IMG/VR virus record: IMGVR_UViG_2541047426_000009
Span: 1 to 27,364 of that record
DNA from: a virus
Taxonomy: Duplodnaviria; Heunggongvirae; Uroviricota; Caudoviricetes
Reading direction: 5' to 3' (one strand)
Length of the DNA: 27,364 bases
The translations under genes were made by a program, and so were the position numbers. The notes below the pieces were generated by a model, which saw only the letters and a program-made list of their open reading frames with translations, made no database searches and was not told the DNA's origin. Within the stretch, counting starts at the first letter, position 1, and every line of letters begins with the position of its first letter. This document shows, piece by piece, positions 5,704 to 7,279 of this stretch.

Positions 5704-6209
5704 CGCGATAACGGTCAAAAATTATGGCGCTGACACTTTTGTGCCACTGGAGATGACTGTACCTAAGTTCAGGGGAGAAGAACACGTCCGGTGGGATGGT
5801 CGGGCCAGATTTAAAGGGCAGGTCATGGCTCCAGCCTGTACGCTGGCAATGGAGGCTGCCTGGCGGGAAATTGATATGGGAACCACGCCACTCAGGGATT
5901 TACTGCCGGTCCAGAGAATAAATTCCTGTTACGGTTACACCACTGTGATCTTGCAAGTGCAGGAAAGTAGGTCTACACGGTAACGCGAGTGCGTGTAACT
6001 TTTGATGTCATTCCCGTAGAAACACCGGACAAATTTTCGCTGACAGGTCATGCAGAAGGTATAAATCTGCAGATTATGGACAATTACGGATATCCGGCAA
6101 GAGCCGGAAAAAGCATGCCGCCTCTAATTCTCAGTGGAAGATGGACTTGATTATACTCATTGCATTGTCAGAAATAGTTATCCATTAAAGGCTGGCTATT
6201 CCAAACAGG

Positions 6210-6237
6210 ATGTTGATTACAAAAATGTAATCAACAT
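6210..6237. promoter_or_regulatory. perfect 12-bp inverted repeat ATGTTGATTACA-aaaa-TGTAATCAACAT about 165 bp upstream of the binding-protein gene; candidate operator
   Basis: Read directly from sequence; located in AT-rich region 5990-6400. Confidence 0.35.
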
Positions 6238-6401
6238 GTAAGGTTTATACTCTTCAATATGCGTATAATTTTCCTTATTTTGTTGACTTTAAATAACAAG
6301 CTATGCACGAGGTAAAGTCGGATAAGTTTATCTGGATGTAATATATATTATTTGTAGTGTTTATAACTTTATTTCATGATAACCAATAAAAGGAGTTTTT
6401 T

Positions 6402-7160
6402 ATGAGGAACATAATGGCAGGTTTTTTAATATTCCTGTCTTCTGCTGCTTATGCTGATATCAATCTGTATGGTCCTGGTGGCCCGCATACAGCCTTGCTT
6501 GATGCAGCCAAACTTTATGCCGAAAAAACAGGTATTATAGTGAACGTTCATTACGGCCCACAGAACAAATGGAATGAAGATGCCAAAAAAAATGCAGATA
6601 TCTTGTTTGGCGCATCAGAACAATCTGCTCTGGCTATCATTCGGGACCATAAAGACAGCTTCAGTGAAAAAGATATTCAGCCTCTTTATCTGCGAAAAAG
6701 TATTTTACTGGTAAAGAAAGGTAATCCTAAAAATATCCGGAGTATTGACGACCTGACCAGACCTGGGATTGGCGTAATTGTTAATGATGGTGGTGGTACC
6801 AGTAATACATCAGGCACTGGCGTCTGGGAAGATATTGCCGGACGTAAAGGGAATATAGAAACTGTCGCCGCAATCCGAAAAAATATTATTTTATATGCGC
6901 CCAATAGCGGAACTGCACGTAAGGCTCTTGAGAATCAGCCTGGAGCAGATGTCTGGATAACCTGGGCTGACTGGGCAGCCAGTAATCCAGAAATTGGTGA
7001 TGTCGTGGAAATAGCGCCAGACTACGTGATATGGCGTGATATGAACATTACAGTACGTCAGGATGCAAATGATGAAACCCGTCGATTTGCAGAATGGCTA
7101 CAAACCGATGAAGCGGCGCCTGCATTCAAAAAATATGGCTGGACCAGGAAAGGCACTTGA
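6402..7160 (+). CDS. orphan periplasmic substrate-binding protein (ModA/molybdate-binding-like), secreted
   Basis: AAAGGAG RBS 8 nt upstream; N-terminal signal peptide MRNIMAGFLIFLSSAAYA; C-terminal FKKYGWT resembles ModA-type proteins; no adjacent permease or ATPase; AT-rich flank. Confidence 0.75.
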   Translation: MRNIMAGFLIFLSSAAYADINLYGPGGPHTALLDAAKLYAEKTGIIVNVHYGPQNKWNEDAKKNADILFGASEQSALAIIRDHKDSFSEKDIQPLYLRKSILLVKKGNPKNIRSIDDLTRPGIGVIVNDGGGTSNTSGTGVWEDIAGRKGNIETVAAIRKNIILYAPNSGTARKALENQPGADVWITWADWAASNPEIGDVVEIAPDYVIWRDMNITVRQDANDETRRFAEWLQTDEAAPAFKKYGWTRKGT

Positions 7161-7164
7161 CATC

Positions 7165-7192
7165 CTCGTCCTTCAGGACGTGGATTCTTTTT
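7165..7192 (+). terminator. putative intrinsic terminator after the binding-protein gene
   Basis: CGTCC-ttca-GGACG hairpin followed by TCTTTTTCC. Confidence 0.4.
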
Positions 7193-7279
7193 CCGGATGC
7201 CGCGCCAGCGGCATGTAGGGGCAGCTCACAAAACGGAAAAAATTGTACGCTAAGCCTCGCCAGGTGAACTGAATTCATT

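Follow-up and report, generated by a model that had tools for sequence, protein, structure and literature searches.

A prophage-borne paa/adfO gene of the AcfC/PEB3 family and a conserved upstream element that may be a regulatory site

The paa locus in a lambdoid prophage

The window analysed here is the whole 27,364-nucleotide stretch of the IMG/VR virus record IMGVR_UViG_2541047426_000009 (Caudoviricetes). It contains an intact, full-length open reading frame (ORF) of 252 amino acids plus stop codon (Table 1), the DNA of which is 100% identical to paa (annotated as "AcfC family adhesin Paa", also AdfO/Z2053) of E. coli O157:H7, O26, O103, O111 and O145; the encoded protein is WP_001449026.1. 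The identity extends over the 1851 bp of positions 5600-7450, which match the chromosomes of these serotypes at 100% and PPompW prophage records annotated 'Paa/adherence factor AdfO' at 99.9%. The locus is present in 611 of 5426 complete E. coli genomes, with the sequence 100% conserved across many serotypes. Given the 100% match to annotated paa, a wrong identity is very unlikely. We therefore hold with high confidence that the gene is paa/adfO, a prophage moron encoding a member of the AcfC/PEB3/Paa family, for which we infer the ligand mechanism and the expression from its own promoter described below. An earlier note on this DNA had treated the gene as an unrecognised orphan; it is in fact a named, virulence-associated gene, well studied in Shiga-toxin-producing and pig-pathogenic E. 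coli as a colonisation factor carried by prophages.

In agreement with the prophage early region proposed in that note, the prophage is lambdoid, of the PPompW / O-island 57 type, and paa is located in its early-right region, with replication gene P and a DUF1627 gene on one side and hok, DUF968, rusA and Q on the other. Stx phages have only ~100 bp of the hok/sok region in common with the locus. The description of the gene as an AT-rich moron was borne out in part: the GC content, 50-58% in the flanks, drops to 27% at 6200-6399 and to 36-49% in windows that span the ORF, but it is 42-45% over windows 5900-6199, and the truly AT-rich spacer is confined to ~6204-6401. The ~400 bp of 5' DNA (5990-6401) previously taken to be non-coding is mostly occupied by a frameshifted papH-like pseudogene, labelled 'fimbrial protein, frameshifted; internal stop' in RefSeq. 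Compared with the intact gene (WP_021560926.1), it is short of the final ~11 codons; the two are 85-86% identical at the DNA level, and the intact gene is located before usher and chaperone genes in other E. coli. PGAP runs the pseudogene across the palindrome described below to a stop at 6241, while homology to the intact fimbrial gene ends at ~6203. Our literature search gave no description of a truncated papH-like gene beside paa.

A search for an empty site with the joined flanks 5250-5650 and 7230-7630 returned no record that covers ≥80% of the query and none that joins the flanks directly. Within the prophage, paa forms a self-contained moron of low GC content, with borders that the flank search did not fix.

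Table 1 Features of the paa locus (positions in the window)
Feature	Position	Strand	Basis or remark
papH-like fimbrial minor-subunit pseudogene	~5655-6203	+	Two frame changes, one internal stop; RefSeq annotation, three-frame translation, homology
paa unit (element, promoter region, paa, terminator, second hairpin), ~1.02 kb	6208-7228	+	Common to IncF-plasmid paralogues
Perfect 12-bp inverted repeat ATGTTGATTACA-AAAA-TGTAATCAACAT	6210-6237		Arms 6210-6221 and 6226-6237, 4-nt spacer
Core element TTACA-N4-TGTAA-N6-TGTAA(GG), candidate transcription-factor site	6217-6243		Cross-lineage conservation
TATAAT, candidate -10	6264-6269	+	Invariant in five E. coli lineages; TATACT in Providencia
Shine-Dalgarno AAGGAG	6390-6395	+	6 nt before ATG; block kept in plasmid and L096 copies
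paa/adfO coding sequence	6402-7160	+	ORF, Pfam, DNA identity, homology, model
Signal peptide (predicted)	6402-6455	+	Hydrophobic N-terminus
Intrinsic-terminator-like hairpin, core CGTCC-TTCA-GGACG then TTCTTTTT	7163-7194	+	Terminator scan, folding; kept in plasmid copies
Second hairpin ATGCCGC-GCCA-GCGGCAT	7197-7214		3' edge of shared unit; z = -1.4, not exceptional

The shared unit and the element upstream of paa

Copies of paa on IncF plasmids share 86-89% nucleotide identity with the window and, out of positions 5600-7450, match only from 6208/6216 to 7227/7228, the flanks on either side being unrelated. Towards the 3' end of this unit, a hairpin at 7167-7180 with a T-rich run behind it resembles a terminator, consistent with the earlier proposal that the gene has its own terminator. 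The second hairpin beyond it is common to the plasmid copies and absent from those of E. albertii, Salmonella and a second E. coli lineage (L096), an island in which paa lies beside fimB/fimE-sized recombinase genes (Pfam Phage_integrase, 186 aa each).

At the 5' end, the perfect 12-bp inverted repeat that the note had reported is exact and far beyond chance, with 0.01 such repeats expected per window in composition-preserving shuffles and 0.09% of shuffles of 6000-6401 containing one. Folded as RNA, it gives a hairpin of -14.3 kcal/mol (z = -5.2) that lacks a following T-run. Comparison of three plasmid lineages, L096 and a Providencia copy (L010) revealed that, across lineages, only the inner part of the palindrome and a third pentamer are conserved. 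The core thus consists of TTACA (6217-6221), TGTAA (6226-6230) and a further TGTAA (6237-6241), the last lying 11 bp downstream of the second and outside the palindrome. Over this 27-bp stretch, 21-26 of 27 positions are identical in the five lineages, compared with 1-6 of the 7 positions of the outer arm (6210-6216) and 25-79% identity in the remaining upstream region. A TATAAT hexamer (TATACT in Providencia) follows at a near-constant 33-35 nt beyond the palindrome core, for which a consensus scan found no recognisable -35 partner.

The element goes with paa onto IncF plasmids, some of which are enterotoxin plasmids, onto the L096 island and onto an integrase island of Providencia, and in the 5426 E. 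coli genomes it was found at paa loci only (at a sensitivity corresponding to a match of ~20 nt or more). It is absent from the homologues of E. albertii, Salmonella, Yersinia, Raoultella, Citrobacter, Edwardsiella and Enterobacter, several of which have a different upstream motif, TTTTCGTGATAAC, in common. We tentatively propose that a regulator from the host core genome may use the 27-bp element as an operator or activator site not described before, the palindrome being a locally extended form of it. The operator suggested in the earlier note would thereby survive in its inner part, whereas the outer arm is not conserved and one of the three pentamers lies outside the palindrome. With similar reserve, the element may have stayed with paa in five or more independent transfers involving the prophage, IncF plasmids, the E. 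coli island and the Providencia island. The 11-bp spacing of the pentamers, together with a direct repeat and an inverted copy, may resemble that of sites bound by winged-helix response regulators.

None of the candidate regulators considered fits the element. A Fur box in the palindrome has only a weak resemblance, and published qRT-PCR indicates that paa is not Fur-regulated; the consensus sites of CpxR, OmpR, RstA, PhoP, CreB, EvgA, ArcA, CRP and FNR each misfit the half-site or the spacing. One C. jejuni genome has a TTACA-T-TGTAA palindrome before peb3, but it is not kept in other Campylobacter and was set aside as chance. Our literature search gave nothing relevant on the paa promoter, its regulator or the upstream element.

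Alternatively, the palindrome could be a structural scar or border of the mobile ~1-kb unit, a recombination breakpoint or hairpin rather than an operator. Homology to the three plasmid lineages indeed begins within 8 bp of its left edge (6208-6216), the similarity to L096 is lost left of ~6216, the fimbrial gene is cut just before it at ~6203, the flanks are unrelated in every paa context and a second hairpin stands at the right border of the unit. However, the unit has no transposase, terminal inverted repeats or target duplication, its two hairpins are unrelated in sequence, and its 3' flank, unlike the 5' core element, is shared with neither L096 nor Providencia. Furthermore, what is conserved is the inner core and the pentamer outside the palindrome, at a near-constant distance from the -10, and not the full hairpin, so that protein binding fits better than DNA structure. 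We regard this alternative as unlikely, although the operator and border roles are compatible, as repeated trimming down to the first required element would yield the same picture. Comparison with the ends of known mobile elements (IS200/IS605-like hairpins, an integron cassette and a Xer/dif-like 11-6-11 site) was likewise judged unsupported, as there is no transposase, the end hairpins are unrelated, paa has a long upstream region of its own and the arm order is unlike that of dif.

There is only a very slight chance that transcription of the upstream fimbrial gene is terminated by the palindrome: its hairpin is stable and overlaps the annotated stop codon of the pseudogene (6239-6241), but its stem is AT-rich with no T-run after it, it was not reported by the terminator scan, the intact fimbrial gene has a different end sequence with no such palindrome, and the element also occurs where the fimbrial gene is absent.

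Assignment of Paa to the AcfC/PEB3 family

The N-terminus of Paa (MRNIMAGFLIFLSSAAYA followed by DINLYGPGG) is hydrophobic and resembles a signal peptide, ending in AYA before the aspartate. In the AlphaFold model (mean pLDDT 88.5), residues 1-16 are disordered (pLDDT <50), and ~residue 16-19 is where the alignment to the solved AcfC and PEB3 chains begins. Paa thus looks like a Sec-exported protein with a cleavable N-terminal signal peptide. A match to Pfam SBP_bac_11 (E 5.5e-34) agrees with the secreted substrate-binding protein recognised in the earlier note. The C-terminus reads AFKKYGWTRKGT.

Searching the PDB with phmmer gave PEB3 (E 1.2e-81, residues 11-248) and AcfC (E 3.5e-81, residues 16-248). 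In Foldseek, the model superimposed on AcfC (4jb7, TM 0.90) and PEB3 (3fj7, TM 0.89) with an rmsd of 1.1-1.3 Å; taken together, AcfC (4jb7) and PEB3 (3fj7, 2hxw) gave TM 0.88-0.90 and 51-52% identity over the structural alignment. Alignment of 16 family members (52-100% identity) revealed 68 invariant columns, among which LxGPGGPH, SNTSGTGxWED, PNSG and a D-W-TW-DW cluster (D183, W185, T187, W188, D190 and W191) are all present in the window protein. The lowest-confidence folded part of the model is the ligand loop (residues 131-140; block pLDDT 56). On sequence and modelled structure, Paa is assigned as a two-lobed class II periplasmic binding protein of the AcfC/PEB3/Paa family.

PDB entry titles of the AcfC/PEB3 relatives name D-aspartate or L-phospholactate as the bound ligand. 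The ligands reported for the relatives disagree: for AcfC, D-aspartate was present in the crystal and sulfated glycans were bound in ELISA, whereas a PEB3 crystal contained phospholactate.

Relation to ModA and to ABC importers

The earlier note had assigned the protein to the molybdate/tungstate-binding fold and suggested a structure prediction and a ligand-pocket comparison with ModA, TupA and WtpA. Some resemblance is evident. The SBP_bac_11 clan includes ModA, ModA structures are the next-best fold matches behind AcfC and PEB3, and the ModA equivalog TIGR01256 weakly matches the C-terminal residues 212-246, where FKKYGW lies. However, the cut-off of that model is 62.5 bits and the match reaches 18.3, while NF002920 scores 17.7 against 470. 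The Sbp/CysP models NF008022 (22.6 against 288) and TIGR00971 (21.5 against 155.5) match only a 45-50-residue stretch. In Foldseek, ModA structures rank sixth and below with 12-19% identity, ModA and the sulfate-binding proteins both giving TM 0.64-0.72, and are outranked by AcfC and PEB3 at TM 0.87-0.90 (for ModA, 13-19% identity in the direct comparison, against TM 0.9 and ~51%). Membership of the ModA, TupA or sulfate-binding families is ruled out by the curated HMM cut-offs and the fold ranking, and Paa resembles ModA at the level of fold only, not of family. The modBC genes are absent at paa and at related loci, and the solved structures of Paa relatives are listed with organic acids bound, with molybdate and tungstate not among their listed ligands. 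We consequently give next to no credence to Paa as a true molybdate/tungstate-binding protein of the ModA/TupA/WtpA type that scavenges oxyanions for the lysogen.

As the note had observed, paa stands alone: no permease or ATPase gene was found in the window, and the neighbours of the gene are the fimbrial pseudogene and hok. A classical ABC ATPase was detected within 3.5 kb at 2 of 78 related loci, and the largest recurrent neighbour family (13 of 78 loci) is not transporter-like by sequence inspection. The lack of an ABC partner therefore holds across the family and speaks against a classical importer role. That paa is a stranded piece of a broken ABC-transporter operon, functionless by itself, could be read from its solitary position beside a pseudogene with mobile DNA nearby and from an Enterobacter homologue ~700 bp downstream of an ABC importer operon, but it is scarcely credible given that the ORF is full length, intact and 100% conserved over many serotypes, that 76 of the 78 related loci, which come from many phyla, have the gene by itself, that a binding protein is already encoded in the Enterobacter operon and that paa/adfO mutant phenotypes have been published (PMC8565820).

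Proposed function and significance

The guess of the earlier note that the protein may be a surface or receptor-related factor is in line with published work. An adfO mutant showed reduced adherence to HeLa cells, and Paa has been implicated in colonisation of the pig ileum (PMC8565820, PMC10562709). AcfC, which is reported to contribute to chemotaxis and colonisation, is the one of these proteins with a periplasmic location shown by experiment; it was found to bind sulfated glycans and mucin and to affect chemotaxis towards mucin, but it mediated no cell adhesion in the assays cited (PMC5976639), so that an indirect effect may lie behind the family's 'adhesin' label. Expression of paa was induced in the contents of the bovine rumen and rectum (PMC8524897).

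By analogy with the family, exported Paa would close its two lobes round a small acidic ligand in the periplasm, likely a phosphorylated three-carbon acid, a sulfated group or an acidic amino acid, contacted by the family-invariant SNTSGTG-WED loop and its neighbours. Since the family is as a rule without a linked ABC importer, Paa would most likely act as a sensor or ligand-presenting protein, for instance in chemotaxis or in the service of a carrier other than an ABC type. Part of the protein may also be exposed at the surface or released and so contact sulfated glycans of the host, and either route could lead to adherence and gut colonisation by the lysogen. Transcription in the lysogen would most likely start from the gene's own -35-less promoter, with a host-encoded regulator binding the three-pentamer element just upstream, and would end at the gene's own terminator.

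The gene itself adds nothing new, as it is a catalogued marker of STEC, EPEC and porcine ETEC and the structures of AcfC and PEB3 have been solved. The biochemical role of the family may be that of an adhesin, a chemotaxis sensor or a transport protein, and the compact ~1-kb unit, opening with the three-pentamer element before a promoter lacking a -35, provides a concrete handle on regulation. If true, the operator reading would tie expression of the paa colonisation factor to a gut signal. The conserved upstream element is apparently undescribed and represents a modest lead.

Comparison with known systems

ModA and the sulfate-binding proteins share with Paa the general two-lobed fold and the Pfam clan, but differ in that the family scores of Paa are far under the cut-offs and the window lacks partner permease and ATPase genes. 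PEB3 of C. jejuni (PDB 2hxw, 3fj7 and 3fir; TM 0.87-0.89) belongs to the same family and fold, with the SNTSGTG loop kept as in Paa. Unlike the prophage-borne paa, it is encoded by a chromosomal core gene, is a glycoprotein and is repressed by the response regulator BumR, and the Campylobacter loci are without the paa upstream element.

AcfC of V. cholerae (PDB 4jb7) is likewise of the same family and fold, with ~51% identity to Paa over the structural alignment. It too is Sec-exported and periplasmic, has no ABC partner, is encoded on a horizontally acquired island and has a role in gut colonisation. The two differ in their genetic setting: paa stands alone with its own upstream element, whereas acfC has been described in an operon downstream of acfB, under the ToxR-ToxT cascade (PMC5976639). 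Closest of all is Paa/AdfO of porcine EPEC, ETEC and EHEC O157:H7 (Z2053, O-island 57), which is the same gene with nothing in it that differs, and whose prophage context and neighbouring hok-family gene ('ckf') match the window too.

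Identity of the gene and its prophage surroundings

The gene that an earlier note had read as an orphan ModA-like binding protein is a known gene with an established name, and structures have been solved for its two closest relatives. The DNA at 5600-7450 is 100% identical to many O157:H7, O26, O103, O111 and O145 chromosomes, in which the gene is annotated as 'paa: AcfC family adhesin Paa' (WP_001449026.1), and 99.9% identical to PPompW prophage records, in which it is annotated as 'porcine attaching-effacing associated protein Paa / adherence factor AdfO'. In the literature paa goes by the name adfO (Z2053) of O-island 57 (PMC8565820, PMC10562709). 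Of 5426 complete E. coli genomes, 611 carry the locus, which occupies 582 chromosomal and 36 plasmid sites among them.

The note's account of the locus anatomy proved largely right. The ORF is preceded by AAGGAG six bases 5' of its ATG and encodes a substrate-binding protein with the leader and C-terminus proposed, namely a hydrophobic N-terminus (MRNIMAGFLIFLSSAAYA) followed by DINLYGPGGPH, a match to SBP_bac_11 over residues 20-247 (Pfam, E 5.5e-34) and the terminal sequence ...AFKKYGWTRKGT; the predicted terminator also lies just past the stop codon. The GC content is 27% at 6200-6399, 36-49% in windows spanning the ORF and 50-58% on either side.

Judged from the surrounding genes, paa sits in the early-right region of a lambdoid prophage, in the order replication protein P, a DUF1627 gene, a fimbrial remnant, paa, hok/sok, DUF968, rusA and further late-region genes. 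The sok match (Rfam) scores 103.9 bits over 7349-7498, and the Hok/Gef-family ORF ends at 7651. The ORF immediately downstream of paa is a Hok-family gene, the position of which matches 'ckf' (Z2054), described as a phage-associated cell-killing factor that always accompanies adfO (PMC8565820, PMC10562709). The interval separating the paa unit from hok/sok contains a perfect 24-bp palindrome (CCGATATGGGAA/TTCCCATATCGG), which as RNA folds at -18.3 kcal/mol (z = -3.8) and has no T-run after it. Two more perfect inverted repeats of 12-13 bp occur elsewhere in the window, one of which looks like a candidate bidirectional terminator.

Features of the paa locus and conservation of its upstream blocks
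Feature	Position	Strand	Detail
papH-like fimbrial minor-subunit pseudogene	~5655-6203		two frameshifts, one internal stop, last ~11 codons replaced
AT-rich spacer	~6204-6401		
Inverted repeat	6210-6221 / 6226-6237		12 bp, perfect, 4-nt spacer
Outer arm block	6210-6216		1-6/7 identical in five other lineages
Three-pentamer block	6217-6243		21-26/27 identical in five other lineages
TATAAT block	6264-6269		6/6 in E. coli lineages, 5/6 in Providencia
Downstream block	6270-6380		25-79% identical in five other lineages
paa ORF	6402-7160	+	252 codons (ORF call)
Hairpin	7167-7180		then TTCTTTTT, just past paa stop codon
Second hairpin	7197-7214		
Palindrome	7280-7303		perfect, 24 bp
hok/sok type I toxin-antitoxin locus	7349-7651		complete, directly 3' of paa
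Inverted repeat	10903-10933		GGCTGGTGGGTG/CACCCACCAGCC
Inverted repeat	17433-17465		AAAACCCCGTTTG/CAAACGGGGTTTT, candidate bidirectional terminator

A fimbrial pseudogene upstream of paa

The 400 bp from 5990 to the gene, taken in the note as non-coding, turned out to be occupied in part by a frameshifted fimbrial pseudogene, the end of which is placed at 6241 in the RefSeq annotation. Three-frame translation revealed fimbrial-subunit pieces in two different frames, with a single stop inside them. An intact relative in other E. coli strains (85-86% DNA identity) occupies a papH-like position, directly 5' of usher and chaperone genes, suggesting that paa was acquired along with part of a chaperone-usher fimbrial operon. 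Because the alignable homology to this intact gene ends at ~6203, 11 codons before the intact stop, the fimbrial gene is cut at that point; its frame then runs on through new DNA to a stop at 6239-6241, and only the remainder up to the ORF is the real AT-rich spacer. As a minor point, the truncated papH-like gene arriving with paa appears undescribed in the literature searched.

Family and fold of Paa

A sequence search of the PDB with Paa gave nearly full-length matches to PEB3 of C. jejuni (E 1.2e-81) and AcfC of V. cholerae (E 3.5e-81), with sulfate-binding proteins matching only at E about 1e-4. An AlphaFold model of Paa, built with a 16-sequence family alignment as input, has a mean pLDDT of 88.5, its weak parts being the signal peptide and loop 131-140. 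In Foldseek comparison with the PDB, the model is closest to AcfC (4jb7; TM 0.90, rmsd 1.1 Å) and PEB3 (3fj7 and 2hxw; TM 0.88-0.89), followed by ModA, sulfate-binding and ferric-binding proteins at TM 0.5-0.72 and 10-19% identity. The curated ModA equivalog reaches 18.3 bits where 62.5 are required, and the sulfate-binding models reach about 22 bits where the cut-offs are 155-288. Since these scores fall below the cut-offs and AcfC and PEB3 rank best in fold, the suggested molybdate/tungstate-binding fold stands at the superfamily level and fails at the family level: Paa belongs to the AcfC/PEB3/Paa family and lies outside the ModA family. Sixteen family members (52-100% identity) share 68 invariant columns, including LxGPGGPH, SNTSGTGxWED, PNSG and a D-W-TW-DW cluster (D183, W185, T187, W188, D190 and W191).

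Genomic neighbours of the family

The possibility raised in the note that Paa is a truncated fragment of a transporter operon was rejected, as standing alone is the rule across the related loci. Eighty of these were fetched from bacterial genomes, ORFs were called within 3.5 kb of 78 and the neighbours were clustered. The top recurrent neighbour family was present at just 13 of the 78 loci and, on inspection of its sequence, bears no resemblance to a transporter component. Probing for ABC ATPases detected a classical one near only two loci (one convergent, one 3 kb away) and an ABC-F-type protein, which is no importer subunit, near a further five. An Enterobacter homologue follows an ABC importer operon at a distance of ~700 bp, but this operon is already equipped with a binding protein of its own.

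In a distant branch (41-48% identity; loci L050-L055, L063-L075 and L068-L084, from Vibrio, Endozoicomonas, Citrobacter and others), the gene is repeatedly followed by one for a ~236-aa secreted repeat protein and by gene pairs that on inspection of their sequences resemble an ECF sigma factor and its anti-sigma factor. These neighbours hint at a signalling, not a transport, role.

Copies of paa on plasmids and in other lineages

Pig and cattle IncF plasmids carry paralogues with 86-89% nucleotide identity. The DNA common to them and the window is confined to 6208/6216-7227/7228, the flanks being unrelated, and these plasmid copies are the only ones to share the 3' flank with the terminator and second hairpin. 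On the IncF plasmid pCFS3246-1 (L004, 2060-4956), the paralogue lies ~1.9 kb from the IS1-flanked heat-stable enterotoxin gene sta1. It is annotated just as 'substrate-binding domain-containing protein', and copies also sit on other pig and cattle IncF plasmids (L003 and L005); despite their DNA identity to paa, the plasmid copies are not named so. The ~1-kb unit shared with enterotoxin plasmids appears undescribed in the literature searched, a minor point.

In two E. coli metagenome contigs (L096/L097, 429-5190), a paa-like gene (86% protein identity) adjoins two genes for 186-aa tyrosine recombinases (Pfam Phage_integrase, fimB/fimE-sized) and an autotransporter gene, an arrangement that we take to resemble a phase-variable switch locus. 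A Providencia alcalifaciens copy (L010, 67% identity) adjoins an integrase. Only a 75-aa frame is listed at the start of its region matching residues 1-249 (4905-5747, tblastn), and this seemingly interrupted copy may be a pseudogene or reflect a sequencing frameshift.

A conserved element upstream of paa

The perfect 12-bp inverted repeat reported at 6210-6237 was recovered at exactly that position. It is not a chance occurrence, because shuffles almost never yield one: those keeping local composition gave 0.01 repeats of this kind per 27-kb window, and when 6000-6401 was shuffled one turned up in only 0.09% of cases. The L096-lineage and Providencia copies both carry the inner part of the palindrome. 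The block identities measured against the window in five other lineages (see table) delimit the conserved element as TTACA-N4-TGTAA-N6-TGTAA, in which two inverted pentamers are followed 11 bp further on by a third. The element ends about 20 bp before the conserved -10 hexamer, for which no -35 is recognisable, and a search of the 5426 E. coli genomes, sensitive to matches of about 20 nt or more, found it at paa loci only. Homologues from E. albertii, Salmonella, Yersinia, Raoultella, Citrobacter, Edwardsiella and Enterobacter lack it in their upstream regions. A different motif, (A/C)TTTT(C/T)GTGATAA(C/T), is shared by Citrobacter, Salmonella and Edwardsiella homologues (L007, L091, L093, L008 and L012) about 70-100 bp upstream of the gene; the gene family therefore seems to be wired to different regulators.

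The best reading of the element is a candidate protein-binding site. As the promoter lacks a recognisable -35, the bound factor is probably an activator; it would be host-encoded rather than carrier-encoded, because the carriers share no regulator gene. Alternatively, the palindrome may mark a recombination border, as the left border of the ~1-kb shared unit falls on its left arm, a few bases past the fimbrial cut; such a role could coexist with protein binding. Fur as the paa regulator is excluded by published data. Several known consensus sites resemble the element in either half-site or spacing, none of them in both. We give slightly less than even odds that this candidate binding site is a new operator, one that links paa to a host signal. 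The three-pentamer element appears undescribed, also a minor point: no description was found in the literature searched, outside the scope of which lie the original Paa, AdfO and PEB3 structure papers, where the promoter region is perhaps treated.

Proposed function

For Paa, the signal peptide, fold and family are shown here. An O157:H7 adfO mutant shows lower HeLa adherence and less release of several proteins, and Paa has been implicated in pig ileum colonisation (PMC8565820); expression of the EDL933 gene is raised in contents of the bovine rumen and rectum (PMC8524897). We propose that Paa is exported to the periplasm, where it may close on a small acidic ligand via the invariant Ser/Thr/Gly loop, and, as there is no importer, would serve mainly in sensing or in presenting its ligand. 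Its effect on adherence could then arise indirectly or through a surface-exposed fraction of Paa that binds sulfated glycans of the host. Among the known relatives, D-aspartate is bound in the PDB entry of AcfC and L-phospholactate in that of PEB3. AcfC is periplasmic and mediated no cell adhesion in the cited assays; in ELISA it binds mucin as well as heparin sulfate and chondroitin sulfate, and it influences both mucin-directed chemotaxis and localisation within the rabbit gut (PMC5976639).
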